Part shown: positions 5,034-32,000 of the stretch, piece after piece
Numbering within the stretch: the first letter of the stretch is position 1
Layout of the letters: every line of letters starts with the position of its first letter
Notes under the pieces: generated by a model
The model's input: only the letters and a program-made list of their open reading frames with translations
Told to the model about the DNA's origin: nothing
Databases searched by the model: none
Made by a program: the position numbers and the translations under genes
Source: an uncultured Clostridia bacterium
GTDB lineage: Bacteria; Bacillota; Clostridia; TANB77; CAG-508
Direction of reading: 5' to 3'
Assembly: GCA_948676835.1 (NCBI GenBank)
Contig: CAPOZU010000004.1
Location: forward strand, 99,149 to 131,148
Length of the DNA stretch: 32,000 nt

Positions 5034-5213
<180 letters not shown>

Positions 5214-11200: not shown

Positions 11201-14200
11201 TGTAGAGGCAAAGAGAATAGGGAAACTAGAGGTGAAATAGTTCGAGGAAAACTTATAAAATATGATAGTAATGGAAATATTGAATGGGAAAAAACACCTA
11301 TTGAATATGATAAAGTAATAGTTTTTAACGGACTAGTAGAAGTAAATGAAGGATATTTGGTACAAGTATATGTAGATGGAGATGCAAAATTAGACAATGA
11401 TGTTATATTAGATGGAACTGTTAATTATTATACTGTTATGTATGATAAAAATGGAAATGTAAAATGGACAGTAAAAGGATATTTAGATTTTCAAGAGACA
11501 TCAGATAATGGTTTTATTGTTGGTATAGATAAGCGAGAAGAAAAAACAATAGACTTTGGGAATGGTATAAAAAGTTCGGAAAAGGGGCAATTTTATTTGA
11601 AATATAATCAAAATGGAATTTTACAGTATGGATTCAGAGGAGCTATGTGGGAAGATAAAATTGATAGACAAGAATATATACTACAAGGAAGAATAGATAA
11701 AGATGAAGTTGTAGATTTTGGAAATAATATTGTAATGAAAGGACCAACTAACTTTTTTATTCAATATGCAAGTGATAATAGTGTAATAACTGCACAAGAT
11801 GCAGGATTATGGGAACGACCTAAAAATACAGACAGTGGAAGAATATATCTTTTAGAAAGCAATAAAGATATAGAATTTAGAAATGGAACTAAAATACATG
11901 GGAATGGGAACTTTAATACATATTTAATAAAATGTAATTCTAATTTAGAAATTGAGTGGTATAAAACTTATGAAGAAATTTCTTTTTTGCTTGCAGAAGA
12001 AACATCCGATGGTGGAATTATTACTGTAGTAGATAATTATTATAAAGAACCGTTAAATTTAGGAAATGGAGTATATTTAGATTCTAATCCAGAACATTGT
12101 ACTACAGCACTAATAAAATTTAATAAAAATGGAATTGCAGAATGGGCAAAAAGCATAGAAGATGCAGAAGTATGGGTTTCAAAAATATCCGAACAAGAAA
12201 ATAACATTATACAAGTTGAAGGTGAAATTTATGGGACAATAAACATAAATGACAATAAAACTATAGGTACTCCAGAAAATTATACAAATATTTTATTTAG
12301 ATATACTCCTCAAGAAGTAGATACACAGGTAGAAGTTGAAAGTGCATATCAGATTGGTGGAGATTATCAGGATTTTCTAAATAATGTAGTTACTACTGAA
12401 GACGGAGGATACATAACAAGTGGAAGTCAAACAACATCAGAGAATGGTAGTTTAGAATACATTATTACTAAATATGATAGCAATGGAACAGAACTGTGGA
12501 AAAATATAATACCAGATAATAAGCAAATATTATCGATTGATAAAACTAGTGATAATGGGTGTATAGTGATAATAGAAAAAAATTATGATGAAAATTCTAT
12601 AATTAGATATGATAGTAGTGGAATACCATTGTATGAAAAAATATTAGATTTTTCTGCACAAGCTATAATGGAATATAGCAATGGAGAATATATAATAGTA
12701 GGAAGCAAAGAATCAATCTCAATACCAATTGATGAATATAATAGTATTAGAACATATGATGGAATATTAATAAAATACAAAGAAAATGATAATAAAAACG
12801 ACTGTGAAGTAATTTTTGAAAGTAAAATAACAGGAAATGTTGTTTATTTAAATACACTAGCAAAAACAGAAGATGGTGGAATTGTTGCTGGAGGGTATTT
12901 GTCAAATTTTACAGATACCAATTTTGGAAATGGTATAATTATAAATCCAAATAGTGAAATTAATATGAGGCAATTTCGTGGAGTAATTGCTAAATATAAT
13001 AGTAATGGTATTGCAGAAGATGCAATAGTAACAGACATTCCAATTAGAAAAATAGAATCAACGTCTGATGGTGGATATATTGTTCTTGAAAATTCTAATA
13101 TTCTAGCTTCTACAAGTATAGTTAAATTTAATAAAATGAATATTGAAGAATGGTCAAAATATGATAAAGATACATGTATATATTCCGTTATAGAGACATC
13201 TGATGGAGGATATATATATACTACTTCAAGAGCAAAAAGCTATCATGGAGTACAAATTCTAGAACAAGTAGCTGATATAATAAAATTAGATAGAAATGGA
13301 AATGAGGAATGGAGAAAAGAAATAGAGTCTAATGAAGATTATATGGTAACAAGACCTAGAGATATAAAACAGCATAAAAATGGAAAATATATATTAGTTG
13401 GAGAGTTTTGTACAGAAATATTGAATTTAGGAAATAGAATTATACTGGAAAATAAAAGCTATCCATGGAACGTAGGAATTCAATTAGGACCTTCACCTGA
13501 TGAAAAAATAGATGTAGTAGCACATTATTATGATGCAATGATTCTTACTCTAGATGCAGAAAAAATGATACCTGAAAAGCAGGAAATTACAGTTAGTAAT
13601 TTTTATAAAAGACATAATATTACTACAGAGGTAAAAGAAGTAAATGGAGAAAAAGGCGGAACAATTTCAGGAGAAGGACTTACTCCATATGAAAAAGTAA
13701 TACATGGAGACGCTTCTTCTAAACCAATAGAAATAAAACCAGACGAATATTATGAATTAGTTGATGTTACAATAAATGGTGAAAAATATTCTATTTCCTC
13801 ATTACAATATAATGAAGAAAAAGGAATATATACGATGCCGAAAGAAGGAATATTTGCAAATGTATTAGACGATATTCATATTGTTGTTACATTCTGTTAT
13901 ACTGAAAATAAATTTACAATTAAAAAAATTGATAGTCAAACAAAAGAACTATTAAAAGGAGCTAAATTTCAAATTATTCCAATGGAAGACACCTCAGAGA
14001 CTGAACTTTTAAATACAATGCAATCTGAAAGTGGAATAAGAGATACTGATATGCTGGCACTTACTGAAAATACTCAAGAAGGAGAATCTTCAATAAGGGA
14101 CACAGATATAGCTGAAGAAATGGTATCATACAGTTTTATAAAATCAGAAGATGGATCTTATAAATCAAACAACCAAGGTAAAGATAACACAACAGCAACT

Positions 14201-14371
14201 TCAAGGATAGAAGTAGATTTAAGTGATTTTAGTGGAGATTATTATTTAGAAGTAAATGCTGGTATATCTTCTTCAAGATTTGACGAAGGAAGAGCATATG
14301 TTACAAGAAAAAGTAGTTTAGCTCAACGGTGGATTGGAAATGTTATCACTAGAAGAACAAGTTTATTCTGA
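5288..14371 (+). CDS. Giant cell-surface adhesin, N-terminal portion (3027 codons). It has a signal/anchor segment but no C-terminal sorting signal. It is almost certainly the 5' part of one gene continuing in 14334-18575.
   Basis: GGAAGGAAGAG lies before ATG 5288. The N-terminus is hydrophobic (LVVLSILASILVITGIVCFVL). It contains five tandem SpaA/Cna-B-like domains, a beta-propeller-like repeat region, and an InlB-B-repeat-like module (GGTISGEG...YELVDVTINGEKY). The ORF ends in the middle of a domain. Confidence 0.85.
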   Translation: MKIKLNLKNKKLVVLSILASILVITGIVCFVLNQSKVDNYIYNSDLKRAEIEQMKTYDPVKDNESQVEGCPNVEFDAFFTKDLDGDGYTEGVRGSCIQIGNQDTIYMELQVNINGELKNARIDINSDNFYFETVLPKSEDVVENAISDNTKTIHLKNIGAGKQITLTGNVKSGVYSSASRTAEAIGNDITKLSNNENSENRNSITLTGTYVIIDENGNNVEKDISKTVYFDLDWHGTTHTSLPAFLGENYNFNYKDQDKNLEGVVDEEKGEVKLSFEILTREDDYQLNLSKSEIEIEIPKLNGCAPKNVEAIDADVEKILNQEEIIGAKVTKTAILDENGEKVQKEAYTDTYSYTNDHYRYNKFKLIITYPIEAYDAIGADTIQLIMPVKAYYEGYNNTSEYFMNPYKSEVAEDSVILTFSNPQGRGAIFHVRIGKYRSYPWYQYMVSNRNPIRIWNGIGENIKNDTYEVRWEAYTGTEGENKKLTIKENNTEHEIKLSDELFVGNESISMEDFVSNVGIYFGDPTVMLGKDGWIKIYDDDDEESEPLVTFTINDWNKYNKSNPYRYDEPVKHIRVETSETKSNSTLYVYNIKEIDTNYVTDNFSKEDYLKYDRIRSRVNGYADGGYVNEDINWAYYQKTESLAQVSLSNNKISTTETHNLKIYIDTLVDEENNQEKWKNGMFLLKLPKELTSVEIKDVYTENKELKNPLNYEIYVEDGYTFIKIITENVEPTSYRITVDCDVTPDSTSLTQTKPVELYAINENCENYPNGYSTQDIYDLNDNSNFTELVNYLTTSLNLISTNNLLTSEYISNYDKTGTNKTYSPKVAGVSREDRTARINVVVNNNYSGTNSEVIILGRIPFKGNKYVEENNENDMKSEFTAIMNSSGIVVPEELKNIVTVYYSENGEATTEFNETNDWQDAPMDFSKVKSYMIYFDKNYKLQRGEQHEFYYDVTIPKEVVLNTESYSHHEVSFCWDTPQGKRPTKVRPGKVGITPVEKFNLQLTKFQTGIEKRVPGAYYSVTEIKTNEMGEEERINSKSARTKEDGTLIISDLNIDRLYEIKEIKSPDTHELNSDTIRILVSINDETGELYVEKKSGKTRTDIIVNQEERIIYLEVEDNPSAKLKIQKTDKDNSEIKIANVRYKIIGDNLPESGSIVTTNKDGIAEIQGLTIGKKYILQETKAANGYYLEEATVEFTILTSDYINYDIEVSGNIKDSNIEIIENSPAITFNLTNERIPIFKIVKTDKNTGERLGKVKYKLKGKGFVENGSKLITNEQGEIQLSTLYLNEEYILEETKALEGYYTKAGEIKFQILNNNGNYSLKINSGEDIIKSTESTYTNGIPTLILYMENERIPTFNLDITKIEKDNLEVLLQGAKFRLYRDEKLVGEAISNEQGKLEFKNLYQYEEGKDFNSTYTLTEAEAPNGYTTMKDITFRVQNVDGILKFIEESNNIESPRSYEVVENTIKLVLENSPSFKLIKVDGEKKEEVRLPNTKFVIYNIDTDEEVPAVDSKGNIVGIKETIDRNEYYTLTTDSNGEFTVDLAEGFYKAIEVKANSEKFDITNQTYYFGIGKSKKSVELKLDSANSMLICSPDMMINTVDGGTIRYRNINRNEEVDIGNGNIIKIAPDVECEGVIAKYDSLGNLEWYNQIKISEYNESYKYHNFSNIHNIIENSLGEIIVKIVSTGKGIQVADNNIITNPHTGAGIDLLVKYDNNGNVLDYTEGDIINCSDYYGNATSYLINNDVVFLELNGESFDIGNGNILRNDKQYRKCDGHYNGNGSYSEHGTDLSNCDNQIDAYYNSCYMIKYNENKEIEWYKKISANEDNVNIQNILKFGDEYTFTLFSERHLEIEINFGNKVIPNQSTILYDINQTENEAIVTPYSILSIDSSGFWAYKHFEKEIGSITLPNGESVYGDADVSYLLIRFNSEGVVQWYTVFDDKLIEDGINYNEGYTFANETKNNGYIIGTVCRGKENRETRGEIVRGKLIKYDSNGNIEWEKTPIEYDKVIVFNGLVEVNEGYLVQVYVDGDAKLDNDVILDGTVNYYTVMYDKNGNVKWTVKGYLDFQETSDNGFIVGIDKREEKTIDFGNGIKSSEKGQFYLKYNQNGILQYGFRGAMWEDKIDRQEYILQGRIDKDEVVDFGNNIVMKGPTNFFIQYASDNSVITAQDAGLWERPKNTDSGRIYLLESNKDIEFRNGTKIHGNGNFNTYLIKCNSNLEIEWYKTYEEISFLLAEETSDGGIITVVDNYYKEPLNLGNGVYLDSNPEHCTTALIKFNKNGIAEWAKSIEDAEVWVSKISEQENNIIQVEGEIYGTININDNKTIGTPENYTNILFRYTPQEVDTQVEVESAYQIGGDYQDFLNNVVTTEDGGYITSGSQTTSENGSLEYIITKYDSNGTELWKNIIPDNKQILSIDKTSDNGCIVIIEKNYDENSIIRYDSSGIPLYEKILDFSAQAIMEYSNGEYIIVGSKESISIPIDEYNSIRTYDGILIKYKENDNKNDCEVIFESKITGNVVYLNTLAKTEDGGIVAGGYLSNFTDTNFGNGIIINPNSEINMRQFRGVIAKYNSNGIAEDAIVTDIPIRKIESTSDGGYIVLENSNILASTSIVKFNKMNIEEWSKYDKDTCIYSVIETSDGGYIYTTSRAKSYHGVQILEQVADIIKLDRNGNEEWRKEIESNEDYMVTRPRDIKQHKNGKYILVGEFCTEILNLGNRIILENKSYPWNVGIQLGPSPDEKIDVVAHYYDAMILTLDAEKMIPEKQEITVSNFYKRHNITTEVKEVNGEKGGTISGEGLTPYEKVIHGDASSKPIEIKPDEYYELVDVTINGEKYSISSLQYNEEKGIYTMPKEGIFANVLDDIHIVVTFCYTENKFTIKKIDSQTKELLKGAKFQIIPMEDTSETELLNTMQSESGIRDTDMLALTENTQEGESSIRDTDIAEEMVSYSFIKSEDGSYKSNNQGKDNTTATSRIEVDLSDFSGDYYLEVNAGISSSRFDEGRAYVTRKSSLAQRWIGNVITRRTSLF
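8275..10010 (+). repeat. Five tandem SpaA/Cna-B-type (prealbumin-like fold) domains inside the adhesin
   Basis: The recurrent pattern is K(I/T)(D/E)K...L.GA.F.L/I ... (T/S).E.G...(F/I)..L..G.Y.L.E.KAP.GY. Examples are AKLKIQKTDKDN...GKKYILQETKAANGYYL, IFKIVKTDKNTG...EEYILEETKALEGYY and LQGAKFRLYRDE...TYTLTEAEAPNGYT. Confidence 0.7.
10080..13550 (+). repeat. Array of at least 13 degenerate blades of about 55-75 aa (beta-propeller-like; reminiscent of the SBBP/PQQ-type repeat)
   Basis: The recurring motif is (K/R)(Y/F)(D/N)xxGxxxW. Instances: KYDSLGNLEWY, KYDNNGNVLDY, KYNENKEIEWY, RFNSEGVVQWY, KYDSNGNIEWE, MYDKNGNVKWT, KYNQNGILQYG, KCNSNLEIEWY, KFNKNGIAEWA, KYDSNGTELWK, RYDSSGIPLYE, KYNSNGIAED, KFNKMNIEEWS, LDRNGNEEWR. 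These alternate with (T/S)(S/E)DGG(Y/I)I motifs. Confidence 0.6.
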
Positions 14372-17300
14372 GCCAACATCACAAATTAATATGGATACAG
14401 ATAATTCCAAAGGCCTTGGTATTAGTAAACCTAACTATTTTATTCAAATAAGTGGAGAAGTAGAAACTCAAAACTATAGAACAATATTAAGTGGTGGTTC
14501 TAAGTATACAGTATATTTCGAATATGAAAAAATGGGATATAGTACAGAAGGTGAAGATACATTTACTATTAATAGTGTAAACATAAGAAGAGCAATAACA
14601 CCTCAAACAGTTGTAGAAACAAATGAAAATGGTGAAATTACAACAGAACTACTATTCGGAAAATATTTAATAAAAGAGATAGAAGCGCCAGATGGATATA
14701 TTTTAAATGATGAATCCTTTGAAATTGACTTCCAAGCAATTGAAATGGGACAAAATCCAGAAGAAGTTCATACAATTTTGGTAGAAAATACAAAAAAATC
14801 AAAAGTAACAGTACATTATTACAAGTTAGAAGAAAAGGATAATCCTACACCAGAAGCTTTGATAGAAGATTTAGTATTGATGGGAAATCCAGATGAGCCA
14901 TATACAACAGAAATAATTAAAGAATTCGAGAAAGACGGAATTGAATATGAATTAGAAAACACATTATCTGAAGATGGAACAAAAACATATGTAATTCCAG
15001 ATAATAGTACTGGAAAATTCAAACTAGGTGAAGATCAAGAAGTAATTTACTATTATGTTGAAAAGAAAACACCATTAATAGTACATCATTATATACAAGG
15101 AACAGCAGTAGGCGTTCCATTAGCAGATGGAACATCTGCTAAAGATGAAAGATTCTCAGGAAAAGAAGGAGAAGAATATACAACAGACGCACTTACAGCA
15201 GAAGAATTATCAGAAGAATATGAATTAGTTGAGGCTCCAGCCAATAGTACAGGAACATACGGAAAAGATGAAATTGTAGTTACATACTATTATAAAAAAA
15301 TAGGAAAAAATGTATCAATTTTCAAATATGATTTACAAAAGCAAATAAATCAAGAAACAGGTTTAGAGGAAGAAGTAAAAGTACCTTTAGCAGGAGCAGA
15401 ATTTACAATACTAAGAACAGACGTTGCAGAGAATACAACTGATGCTGAAAGCAGAATAAGAGATATAGATGTGGCAACAGAGATGGTAGGATATTCAGCA
15501 GAAAATATAGATAACAGTAAATATACCCTAGAGCAATCATCAAAAGCAACATTACCATCAAGAGAATTACAAAAATATACAACAGATGAAAACGGTAAAA
15601 TAGATGTAAAACTTGAAGTTGGAGAATACGAAATAGCGGAAGTAAAAGCACCAGAAGGATATATACTTCCAGAAGGTGAAGCAGCAAAAACTACAATCAT
15701 AGTAAATAGAGAAACAGAAGATGGACAACTTATAGAAATCGAAAATAACAAACCACAAGGAACAGTAATAGTAAAACATCTTCAATTAGATGAAAATGGA
15801 AATCCTACAGAAATACCAGTACAAATAAAAGATGGTGAAAATTTAGTAGATGCTCCAATAGAGACAAAAACAGGAGATATTGGAAGCGAGTATGCAACAA
15901 AGCCAGTAGAAAATCTTCCAATAAACTGGAAATATGTAAAAGCAGAAGGAGAAACAAGTGGAACATTTAAGGAAAGCGAAATAACAGTAATATATTATTA
16001 TCAACAAGTAGATTTTGAGGAAACAATAGATATTGAACTGACAAAAATATGGAAAGATAATAGCATACAAGCATTAAGAAGACCAAAAAGAATAAAGTTC
16101 ATTGTAACACCATATGTAGAAACTGAAGAACAAACACTTACAGAGGCTTCTCAAGAACAACCAATTTCAAATCCTGATGGTACAAATACTACACCAGATG
16201 TAGTAGAAGACATAGTTAATACAGAACCTAAATTAGAAGAACAAAAATCTACATCAGAAATTACAGGAAATGAAACAAACAAAACATCAGAAAACATAGC
16301 AGAAACTGCAAAAGAAGAAACTTTAGAAAAAGAAATTGCAGAGGTAGGAAGTACAGAAAAGGCAAACTCTGAAAAAGAGAATTCAGAAAACATAACAACA
16401 GAGGAAAATGTAGGAAATACAGATTCACAAAATACAGTTAATAATACTTTAAATGAAACTTCTAAAAATACAACAACACAAGAAAATACAGTATCAGAAA
16501 CACCAACAGCAAACATCACAGAACCAGAAAAAGTATCAAGTGCACCTGAAAAGGTAACAAATACACATGATACAATAGCAAGCGAAAATGCTGAAAATAG
16601 CGAGGCACAAAAAGTAATCGTTCAGGAATTAGAAGTTTATGAGTTTACATTTGATGTTGAAAAAGGTGAAAGCTATACTTATACATTATATAGTTTGCCC
16701 AAATATGACAAAACAACAGGAAAAACAAAACGCTATAAAATAACAGAAACATATGATGAAAAAGAAGGTTCAGAACATGACTTAGATTTCTATACAGCAC
16801 AAGGTGGAGAAGTAATTGAACTAATTGACGAAAACGGAAATATAAAATATACATCAAGAATAATAAATACATTCACATTGCCAGAGGATAATTCAAAAGA
16901 TATTAAGGCAATAAAAGTTTGGAAAGACAGAGACAATGAAAGAAAAACAAGACCAGAGTCAATTATTTTAGAACTAGTAGGAAGAGTTAAAAATATTGAG
17001 ATAGAAGAAAAAGAAGATGGAACTAAGGTACTTAACGTTCCAGAAACAGCAGAGCGAAAACTTGATAGTGAATCTGCAAATGTAGAAATACCAAACACTA
17101 ATCCATATGAACATACATTTTCTAAGAGTAAATATGATGCAGATGGACAAGAAATCGAATATAGTGTAGATGAGAAAGAAAAGACAGAAGGAAGCTTAAA
17201 GAAATACAATAAAACAATAACATCAAACGAAGATAAGTCAGAATTTACAATAATAAATAGCTTAAATGTACAAGGTTCAAGTATTACAAAAATAGGTTCA

Positions 17301-18575
17301 GAAAAGCTAAGAGCAAAAGATGGTAAAGTAAATTATACAATAGATTATGTAGCCGAATTAGATACAAACTACGAGGATGAAAATATCCAGGTAACAATAG
17401 TAGACAAATTGCCATATAAGATAAGTGAAAAAGAACGTAATATTGCAGGAGGAACTTATGATGAAGAATCAAAAACAATAACATGGACAGGAACATATAA
17501 TACAAAATCAGAAGAACAAGTTGTTTTATGGAGTGACGGAAGCAAAACACCAGTAACATTAAATGAAGAAAAACAAGTTAAAGTTCTTGAATTCAAAAAA
17601 GACATAAGCTTTTCGTATATAGGAATTACTTTAGATATTGAAACAATAGTAAATAATGTATCTGGAAAAATACAATTAAGAGATTCAGAAGAAACAGTAA
17701 CAGCACTATGCGAAACAAAAACAGAATGGAAACAAGATGTAATTGTTAACAAGTTGTGGAATGGAGATACTGAAAGTACAAGACCAGATTCAATTGATGT
17801 AGAGCTAAAGCTAGTTAAACAAGATGAAAATGGAAATCAAATTCTAGAAGATATAAAAGGATTTAATACCACAATAACTCCAACAGCCACTGCTGACGGA
17901 AAAACAGTATGGACATATACATATAAAGACTTACCAAGATATGATGCAGAAGGAAATGAGTATAAATATACTGTAGATGAAACTGGGGTAAATTACACAA
18001 AAGGTGAACAAACTGTGGAAAACGAGTACTACTGCGAAAAATCCGAAGAAGTTGTAGACAGCAATACAGTAATTACATTAACAAATAATAAATTCGGAAG
18101 TATAACAGTTACAAAGGTTGATAGCAGAAAAGAAGATGTAAAACTTCAAGGAGCAGAGTTCAAACTAGAAAAATTAATCCAAGATGAATCAGGAAATTGG
18201 GTAGTTCCAGAAGAAACAAGCGAAGACTATTCATGTGCTACTGGAACAACTACAGAAGACGGAACATATATATTTGAAAATCTAAAATACGGATTCTATA
18301 AATTAACAGAAATAAAAGCACCAGAGGATTACAGAATATCAAAAGAAGAACTAGAACTAATAGAAGTTAGGGCAGGAAATACAGATGTACAACTTACAGT
18401 AAAAAATGATAAGAAATACAGCTTACCAACAACAGGAGGCTTAGGAATAGACATCATAAGAAATGCTGGAATATTAATAGTAAGTATATTTGCAATAATA
18501 TTAACAAACAGAAAGAAGATAGTGCCTGTAAAAAGAAGTAAAATAATTGAAAAACCAGCAAGAAGAAAGAAATAA
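14334..18575 (+). CDS. Giant cell-surface adhesin, C-terminal portion (1413 codons) with an LPXTG sorting signal. It is the frame-shifted continuation of 5288-14371 (possible pseudogene, sequencing error or recoding).
   Basis: It has no signal peptide and no convincing RBS. It contains three MucBP-like modules (VTVHYY...VIYYYVEKK; LIVHHY...VVTYYYKKI; VIVKHL...VIYYYQQV). It contains three CnaB modules (TKIWKDN..RRP; IKVWKDRDNERKTRP; NKLWNGDTESTRPDS). It also has a DUF11-like module and a final SpaA-like domain. The C-terminus is LPTTG plus a hydrophobic helix plus RKKIVPVKRSK. Confidence 0.85.
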   Translation: MEMLSLEEQVYSEPTSQINMDTDNSKGLGISKPNYFIQISGEVETQNYRTILSGGSKYTVYFEYEKMGYSTEGEDTFTINSVNIRRAITPQTVVETNENGEITTELLFGKYLIKEIEAPDGYILNDESFEIDFQAIEMGQNPEEVHTILVENTKKSKVTVHYYKLEEKDNPTPEALIEDLVLMGNPDEPYTTEIIKEFEKDGIEYELENTLSEDGTKTYVIPDNSTGKFKLGEDQEVIYYYVEKKTPLIVHHYIQGTAVGVPLADGTSAKDERFSGKEGEEYTTDALTAEELSEEYELVEAPANSTGTYGKDEIVVTYYYKKIGKNVSIFKYDLQKQINQETGLEEEVKVPLAGAEFTILRTDVAENTTDAESRIRDIDVATEMVGYSAENIDNSKYTLEQSSKATLPSRELQKYTTDENGKIDVKLEVGEYEIAEVKAPEGYILPEGEAAKTTIIVNRETEDGQLIEIENNKPQGTVIVKHLQLDENGNPTEIPVQIKDGENLVDAPIETKTGDIGSEYATKPVENLPINWKYVKAEGETSGTFKESEITVIYYYQQVDFEETIDIELTKIWKDNSIQALRRPKRIKFIVTPYVETEEQTLTEASQEQPISNPDGTNTTPDVVEDIVNTEPKLEEQKSTSEITGNETNKTSENIAETAKEETLEKEIAEVGSTEKANSEKENSENITTEENVGNTDSQNTVNNTLNETSKNTTTQENTVSETPTANITEPEKVSSAPEKVTNTHDTIASENAENSEAQKVIVQELEVYEFTFDVEKGESYTYTLYSLPKYDKTTGKTKRYKITETYDEKEGSEHDLDFYTAQGGEVIELIDENGNIKYTSRIINTFTLPEDNSKDIKAIKVWKDRDNERKTRPESIILELVGRVKNIEIEEKEDGTKVLNVPETAERKLDSESANVEIPNTNPYEHTFSKSKYDADGQEIEYSVDEKEKTEGSLKKYNKTITSNEDKSEFTIINSLNVQGSSITKIGSEKLRAKDGKVNYTIDYVAELDTNYEDENIQVTIVDKLPYKISEKERNIAGGTYDEESKTITWTGTYNTKSEEQVVLWSDGSKTPVTLNEEKQVKVLEFKKDISFSYIGITLDIETIVNNVSGKIQLRDSEETVTALCETKTEWKQDVIVNKLWNGDTESTRPDSIDVELKLVKQDENGNQILEDIKGFNTTITPTATADGKTVWTYTYKDLPRYDAEGNEYKYTVDETGVNYTKGEQTVENEYYCEKSEEVVDSNTVITLTNNKFGSITVTKVDSRKEDVKLQGAEFKLEKLIQDESGNWVVPEETSEDYSCATGTTTEDGTYIFENLKYGFYKLTEIKAPEDYRISKEELELIEVRAGNTDVQLTVKNDKKYSLPTTGGLGIDIIRNAGILIVSIFAIILTNRKKIVPVKRSKIIEKPARRKK
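18423..18575 (+). other. Sortase cell-wall sorting signal (LPTTG, hydrophobic segment, basic tail)
   Basis: Codons tta cca aca aca gga at 18423-18437 encode LPTTG. They are followed by GLGIDIIRNAGILIVSIFAIILT and NRKKIVPVKRSKIIEKPARRKK, then stop. Confidence 0.9.
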
Positions 18576-21016: not shown

Positions 21017-21049
21017 CATCTTATATTAAAGAAGGAGCGTGCAAACACT

Positions 21050-21733
21050 ATGAAGAAGATTAACATCATGAATGCTATTCGCGAGTATGAGGATGAGCAG
21101 GCCCGGCTGGCCGAGGAGATGATGGAGCAGAAGGCTCAGGCCTCCGATACCGTCTCCGCCGAGACCGACTACCTGTGGGACTGCTGGTTCCAGTTCGCGC
21201 CGATGTATGAGCCCGAGTGCGACAAGGACCTCGAGGAGGACGTCTGCACCGAGCAGGAGAGCACGATCAGCTACCGCATGCCCAGCAAGAACCGCGCCAA
21301 GCGCGCCGAGCGCCGCAAGGCGACCGCTATGCACAAGAGGAAGATCAGCCGGAATGTGGCTGCCATCTGGAGCAACTACGGTAAGCGCATGGACAACGAT
21401 ATGCACAACTGGTCCTACCAGAAGATGAAGGATGGCGAGAAGCGCACCAACCCCATGTCCCAGGAGGCCAAGGCCGACAAGATTTTCAAGAAGGCCATGA
21501 GGGTCAACGCGATTCCCGAGCACCTGCTGCAGCCCATCACCGAGCACTTGGAGTGGCTCAGCGAGTACGGCAAGCGCAACGTCGCGGCCCAGCTGAACAG
21601 TGACCGCTACTACCGCGAGCGCGAGGAGAAGGTCAAGAGCGAGCTGGATGAGCTGACCAAGGCTAACGTCAACATCTTCGTGCAGCGGACGAGCCTGGAG
21701 CGCTACTTGCTCCTCAACGGCAAGGCCGCGTAA
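21050..21733 (+). CDS. Hypothetical 227-aa soluble, highly charged protein encoded by a compositionally foreign (high-GC) ORF; no family recognised
   Basis: ATG 21050 has GAAGGAG at 21031-21037. Third codon positions are mostly G/C; in my reading Lys is always AAG and Glu always GAG. There is no TM segment or signal peptide. The N-terminal third is acidic, and a basic patch KNRAKRAERRKATAMHKRKISR follows. A strong terminator follows the ORF. The antisense ORF is a composition artefact. Confidence 0.7.
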   Translation: MKKINIMNAIREYEDEQARLAEEMMEQKAQASDTVSAETDYLWDCWFQFAPMYEPECDKDLEEDVCTEQESTISYRMPSKNRAKRAERRKATAMHKRKISRNVAAIWSNYGKRMDNDMHNWSYQKMKDGEKRTNPMSQEAKADKIFKKAMRVNAIPEHLLQPITEHLEWLSEYGKRNVAAQLNSDRYYREREEKVKSELDELTKANVNIFVQRTSLERYLLLNGKAA

Positions 21734-21754
21734 GCAAAGCACAAACGATCCTGA

Positions 21755-25412: not shown

Positions 25413-28379
25413 ATGAAGAATGAACTAGAAGACATAAAAAAAACACTTAAAAAGTATGGACAAGAACATTTACTTTTAAAATATGATGAAATGAATGATG
25501 AACAAAAAGAAGAATTATTAGAGCAAATTAGAACTATAGATTTTGAATTAATGAAAAATTTATATGAAAAAGCTAGCAAACCAGCTGATTTAGAAACAGT
25601 TACAATTGAACCAATTGAGCATGTAGATAAATCAAAATTAACAGTTGGCGAACGTGAAATGTATGAGAAAAAAGGTATCGAAGCTATCAAATATAATAAA
25701 TTTGCTGCTGTTACAATGGCTGGAGGACAAGGTACTAGACTTGGACATAAAGGACCTAAAGGAACATTTATATTTGATGTTGAGAAAAATAAATCCATAT
25801 TTGAAACTTTATGTGATACATTAAAAGAAGCTTGGAGAAAGTATGATACAGTAATACCTTGGTATTTAATGACAAGTAGAGAAAACAATGATGCTACAGT
25901 TAAATTTTTTGAGGAAAATAATTATTTTGGATATCCAAAAGATGCTATAAAATTCTTCAAACAAGGTGAATTACCTATGATTTCCCTTAATGGAAAAATT
26001 TTACTTGATAAAAATGGAATGGTAAAGAAAGCAGCCAATGGACATGGAGGAACATTGCAATCAATGGAAAAGGCTGGAGTTCTTGATGAAATGAAAGCAA
26101 ATGGAATTGAATGGGTATTTGTTAATGGTGTTGATAATGTTTTAGTAAAACCAGTAGATCCACTATTAATTGGTATGTCTATTCATAATAAAGTATTAGG
26201 AGCTGTTAAATCAATAGAAAAAACAGATCCAAAAGAAAATGTTGGTGTATTCTGTAGAAAAAATAAAAAAGTAGGTGTTGTTGAATACACTGAAATTTCA
26301 GAAGAAATGGCTAACTTAAGAGATGATGATAGATCTTTAGTATATGGAGATGCAAATGCAATTTTCCATTTATACAATATCAAAGGATTAGAAAAAGTAA
26401 GTGAATTAAGCTTACCATATCATACAGCTAAAAAGAAAGCAGATTATATTGATGAAAATGGTAAAGAAGTAATTGGTGATAAACCAAATGCATATAAATT
26501 TGAAATGTTTATTTTTGATTCATATGAAATGTTTGATGATGTAGTTGTTTTAAGAGTAAAAAGAGAGGAAGAATTTGCACCTATTAAAAATGCACAAGGT
26601 GCAGATAGTCCAGAAACAGCTAGAAAATTATATACAGATTATATGAATAAAGTTGAATATACAAATAAATATAAAGATTGGTCTACAAATCCAATATTTG
26701 ATGAAGAAACAAGAAAAGAACTTTTATCAATAGCTGGAAATGAAGAAGAAATAAAAGATAGATTCTATAAAGATTTAGAATTTGGAACTGCTGGAATGAG
26801 AGGAATTATTGGTAATGGTACAAATAGAATGAATATTTATACTGTTACAAAAGCAACTCAAGGTTTAGCAAACTATATTTTAAGACAAGGAACAGAAAAT
26901 AAAGGTGTTGCAATTGCATATGATTCAAGAAATATGTCACCTGAATTTAGTCAAGCTACAGCACTTTGCTTAAATGCAAATGGAATTAAAACATACATAT
27001 TTGATTCATTAAGACCAGTTCCAGAATTATCATTTGCTGTTAGAGAATTAGGATGTACAGCTGGTGTTATGATTACAGCAAGCCATAATCCACCAGAATA
27101 TAATGGATATAAAGTATACTGGGATGATGGAGCTCAAATCGTTTCTCCATACGATAAAGGTATTATTGCAGAAGTTAATAAAGTAAAAGATTATTCTTTA
27201 ATTAGAAATATTTCTTTAGAAGAAGCTAAAAAACTAAGACTTTATAATGTAATTGGAAAAGCAATGGATAAACTTTATTTAAAAGCGATAAAAAAACAAG
27301 TCTTAAATCCAGAAGTTATTAAAGAAGTTGAAAAAGATTTAAAAATAGTTTATACACCATTACATGGAACAGGAAATATTCCAGTTCAAACAGTATTAGA
27401 AGATTTAGGATTTTCAAATGTTTATGTTGTTCCAGAACAAGAATTACCAAATGGAAGTTTCCCAACAGTGGATTATCCAAATCCAGAAGATATTAAAGCA
27501 TTTGATTTAGCTATAAAACTTGCAAATAAAGAAAATGCAGATATCATTTTAGCAACAGATCCTGATGCAGATAGACTTGGAGTTTTAGCGAAAGATTCTA
27601 AAACTGGTGAATATAAAACATTTACAGGAAATATGTCTGGATTATTAATTGCAGAGTATATTTTATCTCAAAAGAAGGAAAAAGGAATATTACCAAAAAA
27701 CGGAGCATTAATAACAACTATAGTTTCTTCAAATTTGGCACAAGCAATTAGTAAAGAATATAAAATTGATTTTATTGAAGTATTAACAGGATTTAAATAT
27801 ATAGGAGAACAAATTAGAAAATTTGAAACATCAGGAAATAAAGAATATCTATTTGGATTTGAGGAAAGCTATGGATGCCTAGTAGGAACTCACGCAAGAG
27901 ATAAGGATGCTATAACGGCTGTTATGCTTCTTTGTGAAGCTGCTGCTTACTATAAAAAACAAGGATTAACTTTATGGGATCAAATGATGAATATATATAA
28001 TAAATATGGATTCTATAAAGAAGGAATTTCTACAATTACTTTAAAAGGTGCTGATGGAGCAATAAAAATGAAAGAATTATTAGATTCTATTAGAAACAAT
28101 CCACCAAAAGAATTAGGCGGATATAAAGTAACTAAAGTTAGAGATTATAAAACAGGAGTTATTGTTGATACAAAGACAGGAAAAGAAACAGAAACAGGAC
28201 TACCTACATCAAATGTTTTATATTATGATTTACAAGATGACGCTTGGTGTTGTGTAAGGCCATCTGGAACAGAACCAAAAGTTAAATTCTACATGGGTGT
28301 TAAAGGAAAATCTATGGAAGATGCAGATACAAAACTTCAAAAATTAGCAAACTCTATGATGAAATTATCAGAAAAATAG
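25413..28379 (+). CDS. Bifunctional fusion: UDP-sugar (UDP-GlcNAc/UDP-hexose) pyrophosphorylase of the UDPGP/UAP type (aa 1-410) joined to an alpha-D-phosphohexomutase of the PgcA/PGM-PMM type (aa 411-988)
   Basis: AAGGGAGGAG RBS. The N-terminal half carries AAVTMAGGQGTRLGHKGPKG, the UDPGP nucleotide-binding loop, and VNGVDN. The C-terminal half carries the phosphoserine loop TASHNPPEYNGYKVY, the metal loop DPDADRLG, and GFEESYG. The junction is ...TARKLYTDY-MNKVEYTNKYKDW..., with an in-frame ATG at 26643. Confidence 0.85.
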   Translation: MKNELEDIKKTLKKYGQEHLLLKYDEMNDEQKEELLEQIRTIDFELMKNLYEKASKPADLETVTIEPIEHVDKSKLTVGEREMYEKKGIEAIKYNKFAAVTMAGGQGTRLGHKGPKGTFIFDVEKNKSIFETLCDTLKEAWRKYDTVIPWYLMTSRENNDATVKFFEENNYFGYPKDAIKFFKQGELPMISLNGKILLDKNGMVKKAANGHGGTLQSMEKAGVLDEMKANGIEWVFVNGVDNVLVKPVDPLLIGMSIHNKVLGAVKSIEKTDPKENVGVFCRKNKKVGVVEYTEISEEMANLRDDDRSLVYGDANAIFHLYNIKGLEKVSELSLPYHTAKKKADYIDENGKEVIGDKPNAYKFEMFIFDSYEMFDDVVVLRVKREEEFAPIKNAQGADSPETARKLYTDYMNKVEYTNKYKDWSTNPIFDEETRKELLSIAGNEEEIKDRFYKDLEFGTAGMRGIIGNGTNRMNIYTVTKATQGLANYILRQGTENKGVAIAYDSRNMSPEFSQATALCLNANGIKTYIFDSLRPVPELSFAVRELGCTAGVMITASHNPPEYNGYKVYWDDGAQIVSPYDKGIIAEVNKVKDYSLIRNISLEEAKKLRLYNVIGKAMDKLYLKAIKKQVLNPEVIKEVEKDLKIVYTPLHGTGNIPVQTVLEDLGFSNVYVVPEQELPNGSFPTVDYPNPEDIKAFDLAIKLANKENADIILATDPDADRLGVLAKDSKTGEYKTFTGNMSGLLIAEYILSQKKEKGILPKNGALITTIVSSNLAQAISKEYKIDFIEVLTGFKYIGEQIRKFETSGNKEYLFGFEESYGCLVGTHARDKDAITAVMLLCEAAAYYKKQGLTLWDQMMNIYNKYGFYKEGISTITLKGADGAIKMKELLDSIRNNPPKELGGYKVTKVRDYKTGVIVDTKTGKETETGLPTSNVLYYDLQDDAWCCVRPSGTEPKVKFYMGVKGKSMEDADTKLQKLANSMMKLSEK

Positions 28380-28390
28380 ATTAATAAAAT

Positions 28391-28437
28391 AAACTCAAAT
28401 TGTTAAATTAAAGTTTAGCAATTTGGGTTTATTTTTA
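28391..28437 (+). terminator. Intrinsic terminator after the fusion gene
   Basis: AAACTCAAATTG (28391-28402) pairs with CAATTTGGGTTT (28419-28430); one pair is G-U. ATTTTTAT follows. Confidence 0.65.
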
Positions 28438-28559
28438 TGTAAAAATTTTGTAAAAAAATTGTTGTAATATCGTTAAAATATATTGACAAAAAATGAATTT
28501 AATGAAAGAATATTGTAGAGAAATTGTACGGAAATAAACGCTTTGGAGGCATTATTTTA

Positions 28560-31500
28560 ATGAAGAATTCAAAAATAAAAGTAGCTAAAATAATACTATT
28601 TATTTTACTAATTTTTATATTAATTTTTAATTTAATATCAACGAAAAGTTATGCAGCTACAGTAATAATAGATTCAGACTCTGAAATAATTAATGATGAT
28701 GAAATTTTTAATTATAAATTAAGGTTTGACAGCAAAATGGTTACATTTGATTTTATATTAGAGTATGATGCAGATTATATAGAATTTTTGGGTGTAAACA
28801 CGCCAAATGTTGAATATAGCGAATTAGAATATGGAAAAGTTATTGTTTTATATGTAGATGAAGAGGGAAACGGAACCAATAATATTGATATAAACTTTAA
28901 AGCAAATAAAGATAAATTTACAGATGATACTAGAGCTAAAATTAAAGCAATAGATATAAATGCATATTCTGTAACTAAAGGTCATGCATATTCTTCTAAA
29001 GATTTCGATTTAAGTATGACTAAAATGGAAGTTATGAAGATAAAAAAAGGTGATAATTCTTCAGATGATAAAGATTACATACATAAAAATGATCAAAACA
29101 GTAATAATGTGGGAGGAAATGGCTCATATACATATAACTATTATTACTACTATTATAATAACAATGATTCAAATGTAGGAAATATAAAAAATGACCAAAA
29201 TAAAAACAATACTTCTAATAACAATGAAATAGATGGAGAATTCTTTTATGGTACAAAAACGAATACTATTACAGATGGTGTAGGAGCTATTGATAATAAT
29301 GACGATACCAAAAAAGATGGTCAATTACTAATATTCACTCCTGAACCACCAGATGAAAATGAAGGAGATATTCCTTTCACAGGAACAAGAACTTCAAAAA
29401 TTGCAACATTGCTATTAGTTTTATTAATTATACATACGATATATGTATTTTTTAAATCACGTAATAATAAAATGAATTTTTATATGGCATTTGCATTAGG
29501 ATTGATTTTATTTGGAGCTGTAGATTCAAACGCAGCAGGAAATATATTTATTAGAAATTATGATAGAATTAAAAATTTTGAAAATATAATTATAGTAATG
29601 CCAGATTTGCAAAATAGAAATGTAAACAAATCAGATTTTGTTGCTATTCAAAATTCAAATAATTTAAATATCTTAAAAGTAACAGATAAAAATGCAGATA
29701 TTATAGGAAATGATGAATTAATTACAACAGGAAGCAATATATATACTAGCGAAAAGAAAAACTATAAAGTTTTATTATATGGAGATGTAAATTGTGATGG
29801 AAATATAAATTCTAATGATATAGCAGAAATAATAGTACACAAATTAAATAATGTTGAGCTTGAAGGAATAATTAGAAAAGCAGCAAATGTATATAATGAA
29901 AATGATATAGATGATAAAGAAATTGATGGTAACGATATAGAAGTAATTAAAAAATATATTCTAAGAACATTAAGAGGAAATCTTGTTAATAGTTTTCCAG
30001 AAGAATTGCCTAAAGGAATAAGCATAATTTATGAAAAATCTGAAATGGATGTTAGACAAGAACAACAATTAAGATACATTGTAGATCCAAGTAATATGAC
30101 AGTTGATGATGTAGAATGGACAAGTAATAATGAAAAAATAGCTACAGTAGATGAAAATGGTAAAGTAACAGCAAAGGGAAGTGGAACGGTATATATAACA
30201 GCAATGTCAAAAAGTGATAGTGTATTAAATGATACAATATCAATTAAAGTTGCTGATATTCCTACTAATGTTAGAATGCACCTTCATCAGATTCAATTTG
30301 AACTTGGAGAAACAAGACAATTAGGTGCAACTGTAGAACCTGCTACTGCAAAAAATAAAAATGTATTATGGAGTACAAGTAATGCAAGTATTGTAAGTGT
30401 AGACCAAACAGGAAAGATAACAGCAGTAAATGAAGGAACAGCAACAATAAAAGTAACAACAGAAGAAGGAAGACTTACAGATACTTGTGAAGTAATAGTT
30501 TATGAACAAGATGTTACAAAGCCTGGATTTGAATCACAAGTACAAGGCATAAAAATAAATAAAGCTTCTACTACTTTGAAAAAAGGAGAAACAGAACAAT
30601 TAGAAGCTTCTGTATTCCCATCAACAGCAATGTTCCAAGGAGTTTCATGGAAATCTTCTAATCCAGAAGTTGCAACAGTTTCTTCAAAAGGAAAGGTTAA
30701 GGCAATATCTTCTGGTATGGCTGTAATAACAGTAAAAAGTAATGATGGCGGATTTACTGATACATGTGTTGTGACAGTTGATAAAATTAATGTAACAGGA
30801 ATAAGTTTAAATAAAACATCAATAAGACTAAATAATGGAGAAACAGAAACTTTAATACCTACTGTTAGACCAAGTGATGCTACAAACAAAGAAGTTGTTT
30901 GGAGTACAGCAAATTCATTAGTAGCAACGGTAGTAGATGGAAAAGTAACTGCTAGAGGAGCTGGTGTAACAACAATATCAGCTAAAACAAAAGATGGTGG
31001 ACGTGTTGCTGTGTGCGCAGTACAAGTAAATCCAACTAATGTAACAGGTATAGAATTAGATAGGCAAGATGTAGCAATTTATGTTGATAAATCTTTGAAG
31101 ATAACTGCTACAGTAACTCCTGTAAATGCGGATAACAAAAATGTAATATGGGAAAGCAGTAATGAAGATATATTTACAGTAGATGCTTTTGGAAATATTA
31201 CGGGAGTTAGTAGAGGAACGGCAACATTAACAGCAAGAACAGCAGATGGAAATAAAACAGCAACTTGTAGAGTTACAGTAATAGAAGAAGAAATTCATGT
31301 AGAAAGTATAAAATTAAATAGAAATCAAATTATTGTAAAAGAAGGCGAATTTGAAAATCTAACTACAACTATTACTCCAGAAAGTGCAACAAATAAAAAT
31401 GTAACGTGGACTTCAAGTAACCCAACTGTTGCAGAAGTTGATTCTAACGGAAAAGTATTAGGAAAAAAAGAAGGTTTATCACTAATAACTGTGAAAACTC

Positions 31501-32000
31501 AAGATGGATATAAAACAGCAACATGTGAAGTAACAGTAACAAAAGTAGTTAAACCAGTAATGAGTGTTTCTCTAAATAAAACTACGTTAACTTTAAATGA
31601 AAATGAAAGTGAAACATTAGTTGCTACAATAGATCCAATAGATGCAGATAATAGAAATGTAACTTGGAGATCAATTAATACAAGAATTGCAGAAGTTGAT
31701 TCTAATGGAAAAATAACGGCAAAAGAACCAGGAAAAACAACTATAATTGTTACAACAGAATATGGAGGAAAAACAGCAACATGTGATGTTATAGTTAATA
31801 AAGTTTTTGTACCAGTAACTAGTGTAAGTTTAAATAAAACATCAATTACATTAGAAAAAAATCAAAAAGAAATTTTATTAGCCAACATAGAACCAGAAAA
31901 TGCGGATAATAAGGAATTAAGATGGACATCAAGTGATACAGCTATTGCAACAGTTGAACAAAATGGAGAAGTAACAGCAAGAGGCGCAGGAAATGCAATC
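28560..32000 (+). CDS. Large surface protein, open at the right edge. Order of modules: signal peptide, cohesin-like module, Asn/Tyr-rich linker, internal IPFTG sorting-signal-like element, second hydrophobic/signal-like segment, dockerin, then at least 8 Big_2 domains.
   Basis: Absent from the track because there is no stop in the window. I translated from ATG 28560 (TTGGAGG RBS) and found no in-frame stop to 32000. The absence of any + ORF in the track for this region agrees with that. The dockerin is YGDVNCDGNINSNDIAEII...IDGNDIEVIKKYIL. The Big_2 repeats read e.g. VTWTSSNPTVAEVDSNGKV...TATCEVTV. Confidence 0.8.
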   Translation, partial: MKNSKIKVAKIILFILLIFILIFNLISTKSYAATVIIDSDSEIINDDEIFNYKLRFDSKMVTFDFILEYDADYIEFLGVNTPNVEYSELEYGKVIVLYVDEEGNGTNNIDINFKANKDKFTDDTRAKIKAIDINAYSVTKGHAYSSKDFDLSMTKMEVMKIKKGDNSSDDKDYIHKNDQNSNNVGGNGSYTYNYYYYYYNNNDSNVGNIKNDQNKNNTSNNNEIDGEFFYGTKTNTITDGVGAIDNNDDTKKDGQLLIFTPEPPDENEGDIPFTGTRTSKIATLLLVLLIIHTIYVFFKSRNNKMNFYMAFALGLILFGAVDSNAAGNIFIRNYDRIKNFENIIIVMPDLQNRNVNKSDFVAIQNSNNLNILKVTDKNADIIGNDELITTGSNIYTSEKKNYKVLLYGDVNCDGNINSNDIAEIIVHKLNNVELEGIIRKAANVYNENDIDDKEIDGNDIEVIKKYILRTLRGNLVNSFPEELPKGISIIYEKSEMDVRQEQQLRYIVDPSNMTVDDVEWTSNNEKIATVDENGKVTAKGSGTVYITAMSKSDSVLNDTISIKVADIPTNVRMHLHQIQFELGETRQLGATVEPATAKNKNVLWSTSNASIVSVDQTGKITAVNEGTATIKVTTEEGRLTDTCEVIVYEQDVTKPGFESQVQGIKINKASTTLKKGETEQLEASVFPSTAMFQGVSWKSSNPEVATVSSKGKVKAISSGMAVITVKSNDGGFTDTCVVTVDKINVTGISLNKTSIRLNNGETETLIPTVRPSDATNKEVVWSTANSLVATVVDGKVTARGAGVTTISAKTKDGGRVAVCAVQVNPTNVTGIELDRQDVAIYVDKSLKITATVTPVNADNKNVIWESSNEDIFTVDAFGNITGVSRGTATLTARTADGNKTATCRVTVIEEEIHVESIKLNRNQIIVKEGEFENLTTTITPESATNKNVTWTSSNPTVAEVDSNGKVLGKKEGLSLITVKTQDGYKTATCEVTVTKVVKPVMSVSLNKTTLTLNENESETLVATIDPIDADNRNVTWRSINTRIAEVDSNGKITAKEPGKTTIIVTTEYGGKTATCDVIVNKVFVPVTSVSLNKTSITLEKNQKEILLANIEPENADNKELRWTSSDTAIATVEQNGEVTARGAGNAI
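29370..29540 (+). other. Internal tripartite sorting-signal-like element (IPFTG, hydrophobic helix, KSRNNK) followed directly by a signal-peptide-like segment starting with Met
   Basis: Codons att cct ttc aca gga at 29370-29384 encode IPFTG. Then come TRTSKIATLLLVLLIIHTIYVFF and KSRNNK. ATG 29472 then opens MNFYMAFALGLILFGAVDSNAAG. There is no in-frame stop between the two parts. Confidence 0.6.
30020..32000 (+). repeat. Tandem Big_2 (bacterial Ig-like group 2) domain repeats with a period of about 80-85 aa: seven complete plus one truncated by the window edge
   Basis: Each unit follows V.(S/G)I.LN....L..GE...L.A.V.P..A.NK.V.W.S.N..(I/V)A.VD..GK(V/I)TA...G.A.I...T.DG.K.A.C.V.V. Confidence 0.8.

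Follow-up and report, generated by a model that had tools for sequence, protein, structure and literature searches.

We analyzed a 32,000-nt stretch of DNA from an uncultured Clostridia bacterium (assembly GCA_948676835.1, contig CAPOZU010000004.1, forward strand, positions 99,149 to 131,148), referred to here as the window. One open reading frame (ORF) in the window, which begins at ATG 28560, encodes both a cohesin and a dockerin, with a sortase sorting signal and a second, signal-peptide-like segment between them. Judging from the sequence, we consider it reasonably probable that the protein is a precursor cleaved twice, in which sortase would fix the cohesin to the cell wall, signal peptidase I would free the dockerin-bearing cargo, and the dockerin would then bind the cohesin again. 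On a broader proposal our judgement is evenly balanced. It holds that this is a natural surface polyprotein with a mid-protein sorting signal and an internal cleavable signal peptide, processed by sortase and signal peptidase I to self-assemble 1:1, and that it belongs to a family with exchangeable cargo derived from a cohesin/sortase/dockerin cassette. What the data show directly is the layout of the parts, their folds, the retention of both cleavage motifs across the family and the kinship with split pairs near sortase genes.

Architecture of the fused protein

The frame from ATG 28560 contains no stop codon over the 1147 codons that lie in the window, and it extends past the window end. The full ORF gives a single product of 1542 residues, which is called in four other assemblies. 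A reading of the window made earlier from sequence alone (the sequence-only reading) had listed a signal peptide, MVTFDFILEYDADYIEFLGV, YTYNYYYYYYNNN, IPFTG, IATLLLVLLIIHTIYVFF, KSRNNK, MNFYMAFALGLILFGAVDSNAAG, GDVNCDGNINSNDIAEII and Big_2 repeats, and all of them are present where it had placed them (Table 1). Its description of the ORF as a non-cellulosomal cohesin-dockerin surface-display pair also holds at the level of sequence and fold.

The protein starts with a signal peptide, and an equivalent segment is found in all full-length homologues. The module behind it contains MVTFDFILEYDADYIEFLGV. To the cohesin-family profile (alignment A1, 37 sequences), 20 of the 23 PDB matches were cohesins, the best being the NagJ cohesin of C. 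perfringens (2jh2, E = 1.2e-6), and 29 of the 37 family members individually match PF00963 (best 7.6e-9). The AlphaFold 2 (AF2) model of the module has a mean predicted local distance difference test score (pLDDT) of 91.4 and is a nine-stranded jelly-roll beta-sandwich; the sequence-only reading had expected a cohesin-like beta-sandwich. When the model was compared with the PDB by Foldseek, nearly all hits at E <= 1e-4 were cohesins, with 2jh2_C at E = 6e-8. Template modeling (TM) scores to the top cohesins were 0.65-0.73 (0.69/0.73 for 2vo8). Because the family profile, the PF00963 hits of the relatives and the modeled fold agree, the N-terminal module is by its model a cohesin, though its own sequence falls below the Pfam threshold. 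Direct Pfam and PDB searches with the window copy alone gave no match, which taken by itself would have pointed, wrongly, to "not a cohesin".

The cohesin is followed by a linker rich in Asn, Tyr and Asp. Neither its sequence nor its length is kept among homologues, and it is likely a wall-spanning spacer. Within it, at 29127-29160 (residues ~190-201), lies the Tyr run YTYNYYYYYY, also present in a homologue with 91% identity and missing from the other relatives inspected; this is an unusual composition for a wall-spanning spacer.

The linker leads into the layout of a sortase sorting signal: IPFTG, the hydrophobic helix IATLLLVLLIIHTIYVFF and the basic loop KSRNNK. P272, G275 and K299 are at least 90% conserved (alignment A3) amid a stretch otherwise variable in sequence and length. 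The basic loop is net positive in all homologues parsed by our first hairpin parser, which missed one third of cases. The tail of the signal weakly matches the NCBIfam family EF0750_LPXTG (16 bits against a cut-off of 47). The signal is not C-terminal, as 1238 residues follow K304. Lying mid-protein, it makes the protein unusual among sortase substrates.

After the basic loop an in-frame ATG at 29472 is followed by MNFYMAFALGLILFGAVDSNAAG, and the second hydrophobic segment ends DSNA/AG (residues 305-327; here and below a slash marks a cleavage point). The segment has the features of a Sec type I signal peptide, with KSRNNK, then MNFYMAFALGLILFGAV, then DSNA/A. It is internal, beginning at residue 299-305 behind the stop-transfer helix. 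By its sequence KSRNNK is at once the charged tail of the sorting signal and the predicted n-region of the internal signal peptide. Separate translation from ATG 29472 was considered and rejected. On inspection of the sequence ahead of this ATG, we found no purine-rich site comparable to the GGAGG at the ORF start, and Met305 is not conserved, most homologues having no Met there. The second half therefore cannot be made independently.

The predicted cargo begins with a conserved domain, here called the X module. Its AF2 model has a pLDDT of 89.9 and a predicted TM score of 0.83. Foldseek gave no convincing match for it in the PDB, only weak beta-grasp-like ones at E > 0.4 (MCU N-terminal domain, TGS), and found no homology to the X module of ScaB/CttA (4iu2_B, E = 2.4, probability 0.14; 4wkz_A, E = 1.0).

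Next to it lies the dockerin, which reads GDVNCDGNINSNDIAEII...KKYIL. Compared with the DxNxDGxIxxxD of type I dockerins, DVNCDGNINSND in the first repeat is canonical, and the second loop is longer, with the pattern N..N..D..D..ID..D and Asn and Asp positions that are invariant in the family. PF00404 matched the isolated 172-residue fragment (23.9 bits against a cut-off of 22.9), scored 16.9-17.5 bits in longer queries, and was matched by 24 of 28 relatives (best 3e-16). The dockerin alone had PDB sequence matches to dockerins only, the dockerin-family profile matched dockerins at E = 1e-9, and the model (pLDDT 89.9) gave target-normalized TM scores of 0.74-0.78 to dockerins. Of the two Pfam families named in the sequence-only reading, PF00404 was thus recovered from the window protein itself, as an isolated fragment, and PF00963 from its relatives and not from the window copy. 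The remainder of the protein is an array of Big_2 immunoglobulin (Ig)-like repeats. The full-length protein ends ...KLLKRLFKLD and has no C-terminal anchor on the cargo.

Conservation of both processing sites in the fused family

A word-index homology search with residues 1-486 gave no match, and a single-protein scan of genome contigs found no relative. An exhaustive HMMER search was needed and found 102 relatives. In 37 clusters, defined at 50% identity and reaching down to ~25% identity, the cohesin, motif, helix, basic loop, second helix, X module and dockerin are kept in one ORF, and colinear single-ORF homologues reach down to roughly 23-30% identity. The cargo after the dockerin varies and includes Big_2, Big_3, metallo-beta-lactamase, glycoside hydrolase-like and other domains.

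We examined both processing sites in 38 proteins, the query and one representative of each of the 37 clusters. A motif of the form [LIS]Px[TA]G or LAxTG lies just ahead of the first helix in 34 of the 38, compared with 3% of random windows from the same proteins. Just behind the second hydrophobic core, [AVSTILGC]-x-Ala is found in all 38, compared with 35% of random windows. These ratios to background overstate significance, as the sequences are related and not independent. Judged by their conservation, both sites appear to be under selection.

In four fused relatives the sortase motif is absent and hairpin and Ala site are kept; the family design can therefore do without sortase cleavage. 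These relatives parallel the split cohesins with plain transmembrane anchors described below, and the type of anchor is therefore exchangeable.

Split relatives and origin of the fusion

We scanned one genome per species with a pattern from a six-sequence alignment (A4); alignments A2 and A3 were too diverse for pattern design. The scan found only distant relatives, with 28-48% identity over the dockerin and part of the X module, and its hits among the GTDB representatives exclude the species itself and close relatives. There were 80 such loci, mostly in metagenome-assembled genomes (MAGs) of gut Clostridia, Lachnospiraceae and Bacilli. At 47 loci a separate ORF close by encodes a cohesin that belongs to the family of the window cohesin and typically ends in LPKTG or LPQTG, a helix, KKK and a stop codon. 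Some split cohesin genes end in a plain transmembrane anchor (L011, L038 and L016). At seven loci the cohesin gene is directly followed by a gene for a signal peptide, X module, dockerin and long cargo, with a gap of 1-145 nt (one pair overlaps). In these adjacent pairs the X-dockerin is at the N-terminus of the cargo, and the two parts correspond to the two halves of the window ORF.

Of 88 loci scored, among them the window and seven fused-gene loci, 38 have a sortase gene within the cassette, and cohesin, sortase, dockerin protein is the most frequent order (20 loci). Conserved three-gene cassettes of a cohesin with an LPXTG anchor, a sortase and an X-dockerin or dockerin protein occur in many of these MAGs, at L001, L013, L014, L026, L034, L043, L047, L050, L058 and L085 (17854-21056) among others. 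An operon of this kind lies 1.1 kb from the gene for a fused homologue with 47% identity. It encodes a 349-residue cohesin (KLPKTG, helix, NNRKNK), a 207-residue sortase and, as third gene, a glucosaminidase-like protein with a C-terminal dockerin.

The closest view of a split pair comes from contig L091. There a cohesin gene ends with LPQTG, a helix, KIRVDRFKDIK and TAA, and after 15 nt with a ribosome-binding site comes the ATG of the cargo gene P0086. The P0086 protein shares 61% identity with the fused protein P0030 over residues 185-394 of the latter, and the signal peptide at the N-terminus of P0086, with its cleavage site (SSNLKA/N), aligns with the internal segment of P0030 (SSNVKA/T). 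By this alignment the internal segment is homologous to a real signal peptide and probably descended from one, the fused gene being the pair minus a stop codon, spacer and start codon. P0037, a stand-alone cohesin on the same contig, is 51% identical to residues 1-184 of P0030. It is the second stand-alone cohesin there, follows the split pair (L091:2-2111) and has a plain transmembrane anchor, an arrangement that suggests tandem duplication of anchors.

In a rough and weakly supported neighbor-joining tree of X-dockerins, the fused proteins form one large clade with most split forms outside and P0086 nested inside. This would tentatively fit one old fusion, then diversification, with at least one fission or second event. 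The split cassettes are evidently the ancestral form. From these comparisons we infer that the ORF arose by fusion of an adjacent pair, a sortase-anchored cohesin gene and an X-dockerin cargo gene.

Proposed mechanism and its alternatives

The two cleavages and the cohesin-dockerin binding, which we infer from these features, would proceed as follows. The N-terminal signal peptide would initiate Sec export of the cohesin and linker, and the sorting signal (IPFTG, the helix and KSRNNK) would halt transfer. The basic loop would remain cytoplasmic and, as the n-region of the next hydrophobic segment, would let export of the downstream part restart. Sortase would cleave IPFT/G and attach the cohesin to peptidoglycan. 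Signal peptidase I would cleave after SNA, between A325 and A326, to free an X-dockerin/Big_2 protein with no anchor of its own, and a hairpin peptide of ~50 residues would remain in the membrane. Docking on the wall-bound cohesin would then give an N-terminally tethered Ig-like fibre, probably an adhesin, with the C-terminus as its distal end. The benefits would be 1:1 stoichiometry, co-localization of the two products and N-terminal tethering.

Engineered Seb-Cws-BlaZ hybrids with an internal sorting signal were reportedly still cut by sortase (Navarre and Schneewind in 1994). Viral polyproteins and engineered Lep constructs provide cases in which signal peptidase cleaves internal signal peptides that lie behind a stop-transfer helix. 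We know of no bacterial example in which sortase and signal peptidase act on one precursor.

Several observations weigh against a precursor processed in this way. The window cohesin has no PF00963 match even at E <= 1 and no PDB sequence match. IPFTG is an unusual variant of the sortase motif, and the neighboring adhesin carries LPTTG. The x-x-Ala site is common, with a background of 35%, and kinship among the members inflates the 38 of 38. The sortase motif is missing from four fused relatives that retain the hairpin and Ala site. Neither the window nor the 10 kb downstream of it contains a sortase gene.

An alternative is that sortase alone acts on the protein. The cohesin would go to the wall, and the second segment would be an uncleaved signal-anchor that tethers the cargo to the membrane through the hairpin, from where it may reach the cohesin. 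The conserved sorting signal is compatible with this, cleavage behind the second helix is a prediction, and the x-x-Ala pattern has a background of 35%. We nevertheless regard it as unlikely. All 38 proteins have Ala at -1, at up to ~75% divergence and with Ala making up only 5% of their residues. The second segment has short hydrophobic cores (10-18 residues), and it shares ancestry with a true N-terminal signal peptide, the cleavage site being part of the match. A membrane tether of ~5 residues would also keep the dockerin far from a cohesin embedded in the wall. Given this homology and the invariant x-x-Ala, the cargo is more likely released and recaptured than held by the hairpin. The sequence-only reading had offered two explanations, joined genes or a sortase-cut polyprotein with hairpin-held cargo. 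The second is the better supported, with its hairpin replaced by release, which x-x-Ala in 38 of 38 and the homology to P0086 favor.

We think it quite improbable that the protein is not processed at all. It would then be a two-helix hairpin membrane protein that shows both modules, with the LPXTG-like motif a relic and binding in cis or elsewhere. Such a protein would be in keeping with the four motif-less fused relatives, with the split cohesins ending in a plain transmembrane anchor and with the absence of a sortase gene near the window locus. It does not readily account for a Pro and a Gly at least 90% conserved within a freely drifting linker, for retention of the motif in 34 of 38 proteins against 3% background, or for the sortase genes in related cassettes.

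Processing might also run as proposed with halves that are not mutual partners, the cohesin capturing other dockerins and the cargo docking elsewhere. The pairing of the two halves is a prediction, L085 encodes a second cohesin and a second dockerin protein 1 kb away, and related genomes have several possible partners. To this, too, we give a small probability. The cohesin and X-dockerin are fused or no more than about 10 kb apart in the window, at the seven fused-gene loci and at 47 of the 80 distant loci. Cognate pairing is the simplest account of a 1:1 fusion, and the cargo has no other retention signal.

It is almost inconceivable that two genes were joined here by an error of sequencing or assembly or by recent read-through of the pseudogene type: an out-of-frame TAATAA does lie at 29462-29467, as the sequence-only reading had noticed, with a T6 run just upstream, and another locus of the window (5288-18575) is broken into two overlapping frames, but the junction (29430-29499) is identical in four independent assemblies, the single-ORF layout is kept in 37 diverged clusters, and the KSRNNK tail of the sorting signal reads correctly in the present frame only. 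The copies compared were from different samples (ENA ERZ12802739, ENA ERZ15143657, NCBI MAG GCA_949007935.1 and Logan SRR35309974) and were located in public assemblies through the upstream gene; at least 20 contigs carry the same locus, of which four were read. One of the four comes from a strain whose first 1146 residues include 8 differences. The homologues P0001 (91% identity, 1545 residues) and P0002 (47%, 2230 residues) are single ORFs colinear over residues 1-486, and the cluster of the former has five members, each of 1545-1547 residues, on 10 contigs in total.

The gene is genuine and is translated as a fusion. With identical junctions and a conserved single-ORF layout, the idea that a 1-nt indel would restore two genes was rejected and the TAATAA is irrelevant. 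The 91% and 47% orthologues have no ordinary stop codon at this place. Two joined genes, the other explanation in the sequence-only reading, therefore stands as an account of evolution, given the split adjacent pairs in relatives, and fails as a mis-join.

Genomic setting

The ORF is a separate transcription unit, since a terminator-like hairpin closes the upstream gene (Table 1). Two hairpins of this type were seen, compared with 0.2 expected in shuffled sequences. Promoter-like sites are no more frequent in the region than in shuffles. Rfam and tRNA scans of the window had no match, nor did a plasmid megablast.

Table 1. Features of the fused ORF and the region just upstream (window coordinates)
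Feature	Residues	Position	Strand	Basis or remarks
Terminator-like hairpin, end of upstream UDPGP/PGM gene		28388..28433	+	20-pair stem, then T run
Promoter-like site		28483..28511	+	TTGACA, 17 nt, TG-AAGAAT; consensus match only
Shine-Dalgarno GGAGG		28545..28549	+	10 nt upstream of ATG 28560; read from sequence
N-terminal Sec signal peptide (MKNSKIKVAK...STKSYA/A)	1-32	28560..28655	+	Basic n-region, hydrophobic core, S-Y-A at -3 to -1
Cohesin module	~33-163	28656..29048	+	Family profile, PF00963 in relatives, AF2 model, Foldseek
Low-complexity Asn/Tyr/Asp-rich linker, including YTYNYYYYYYNNN	164-270	29049..29369	+	Translation
Sortase pentapeptide IPFTG	271-275	29370..29384	+	P272 and G275 at least 90% conserved
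Hydrophobic helix of sorting signal (stop-transfer), IATLLLVLLIIHTIYVFF	281-298	29400..29453	+	Hairpin parser
Basic loop KSRNNK	299-304	29454..29471	+	K299 at least 90% conserved
Internal signal-peptide-like segment, MNFYMAFALGLILFGAVDSNA	305-325	29472..29534	+	Predicted signal peptidase I cleavage after A325
X module	~326-404	29535..29771	+	Conserved beta-beta-alpha-beta-beta-beta domain ahead of dockerin; alignment A2
Dockerin	~405-471	29772..29972	+	Canonical first Ca loop DVNCDGNINSND; second loop longer, atypical, conserved
Big_2 Ig-like repeat cargo	to 1542	30042..32000, continuing beyond window	+	Big_2, 8 Pfam stretches, E = 4e-116

The gene directly upstream (25413-28379) encodes a 988-residue fusion of a UDP-sugar pyrophosphorylase (UDPGP) and a complete phosphoglucomutase/phosphomannomutase (PGM), which would place two successive reactions of nucleotide-sugar synthesis on one polypeptide. 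The genes that follow the fused ORF, past the end of the window (L082:17947-20343), are for a 587-residue transglutaminase-core protein, weakly matching a transglutaminase-related lipoprotein family, and a 203-residue leucine-rich repeat protein.

The sequence-only reading had placed the ORF next to a giant adhesin locus, which is loosely true, as ~10 kb of unrelated, mostly housekeeping genes intervene. The SpaA/MucBP/Cna_B adhesin is encoded as two ORFs (5288-14371, 3027 residues; 14334-18575, 1413 residues), which are in different frames and share 38 nt. The second lacks a signal peptide, and its C-terminal end consists of LPTTG, a helix and a basic tail. Gene calls in other assemblies show this split as well (L088 and L090, 3027 + 1411 residues); it is therefore a fixed frameshift, a pseudogene or possibly a programmed shift rather than a local error. 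At 5066-5106, ~180 nt upstream of the adhesin start codon at 5288, ~20 units of an (AC) dinucleotide repeat form by their sequence a candidate tract for slipped-strand phase variation.

Between the adhesin and the fused ORF, a 227-residue ORF at 21050-21733 (+) is overlapped by another at 21026-21742 (-), so that the segment is open on both strands. It forms a block of 41% GC in a genome of ~27% GC, has no Pfam match and is called as an unannotated gene in all related contigs.

Comparison with known systems

Closest in function are the ScaE anchor of R. flavefaciens with its X-dockerin ligands and single-cohesin LPxTG anchors such as cSca5. Like the proposed wall-bound product, ScaE is a sortase-anchored single cohesin with a linker that captures an X-module-dockerin unit, that of ScaB or CttA (PDB 4iu2/4iu3), and 4iu2_A and 4iu3_A are among the Foldseek hits of the window cohesin. 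In the ScaE system the LPXTG is C-terminal, anchor and cargo are encoded by separate genes, and the setting is cellulosomal. Here a single ORF combines a mid-protein sorting signal with a further export signal behind it. Its X module shows no recognizable relationship to theirs, and the cargo is an Ig-repeat fibre rather than a scaffoldin or enzyme. The cSca5 protein of the Limousia mucinolysome has a single N-terminal cohesin and a C-terminal LPxTG (PMC12997984).

By profile (E = 1.2e-6) and fold, the closest cohesins are those of the C. perfringens NagJ/NagH/NanJ glycosidase pairs (2jh2, 2o4e, 2ozn and 2vo8), which also come from a low-GC Clostridium and are used outside cellulose degradation. 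They differ in being modules within secreted enzymes that join enzymes to each other, with neither a sortase signal nor an internal signal peptide. The gut Clostridia cassettes (such as L001, L013, L034, L047 and L085) share the cohesin family, the type of sorting signal and the X-dockerin family with the window ORF; their genes are separate and often include a sortase of their own.

A cohesin and a dockerin also occur in one polypeptide in the adaptor scaffoldins, such as A. cellulolyticus ScaA and R. flavefaciens ScaA/ScaB. Those have no membrane or sorting segment between the modules, remain one mature protein, and use the dockerin to bind a different scaffoldin. Since two hydrophobic helices and a sortase motif part its modules, the window protein is not an adaptor scaffoldin.

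As for precursors that yield partners, C. difficile SlpA is cut by Cwp84, and the products of this surface precursor re-associate. Viral envelope polyproteins such as flavivirus prM-E have a stop-transfer helix and then an internal signal peptide. Each of these precursors gives rise to two products outside the cytoplasm, which are made 1:1 and remain together, and the viral polyproteins share the logic of helix, basic loop and cleavable signal. The proteases and partners are different from those proposed here.

In the searchable literature, which leaves many subscription papers outside, we found no natural protein described as having an internal sorting signal, no cohesin-dockerin precursor and no cohesin/sortase/dockerin cassette, so that a prior description is possible. 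The components are familiar. What appears to be new is their wiring, a layout that appears undescribed, together with the size and conservation of the family.

Implications

In annotation, proteins of this kind are readily mistaken for frameshift fusions or labeled simply "Big_2 domain proteins". For engineering, the gene would be a cassette, complete in itself, for displaying proteins on the surface non-covalently and in fixed stoichiometry. The design permits cargo to be tethered by its N-terminus, the opposite polarity to direct LPXTG anchoring. By definition a sorting signal stands at the C-terminus. If the proposed processing is true, a conserved family with a mid-protein sorting signal whose tail is reused as an n-region would widen the rules that apply to sortase substrates and membrane-topology signals in Gram-positive bacteria. 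It would add to cohesin-dockerin biology a non-cellulosomal use in which each cargo brings its own anchor, and it points to a widespread cassette with which gut Clostridia may display adhesin-like fibres and enzymes.

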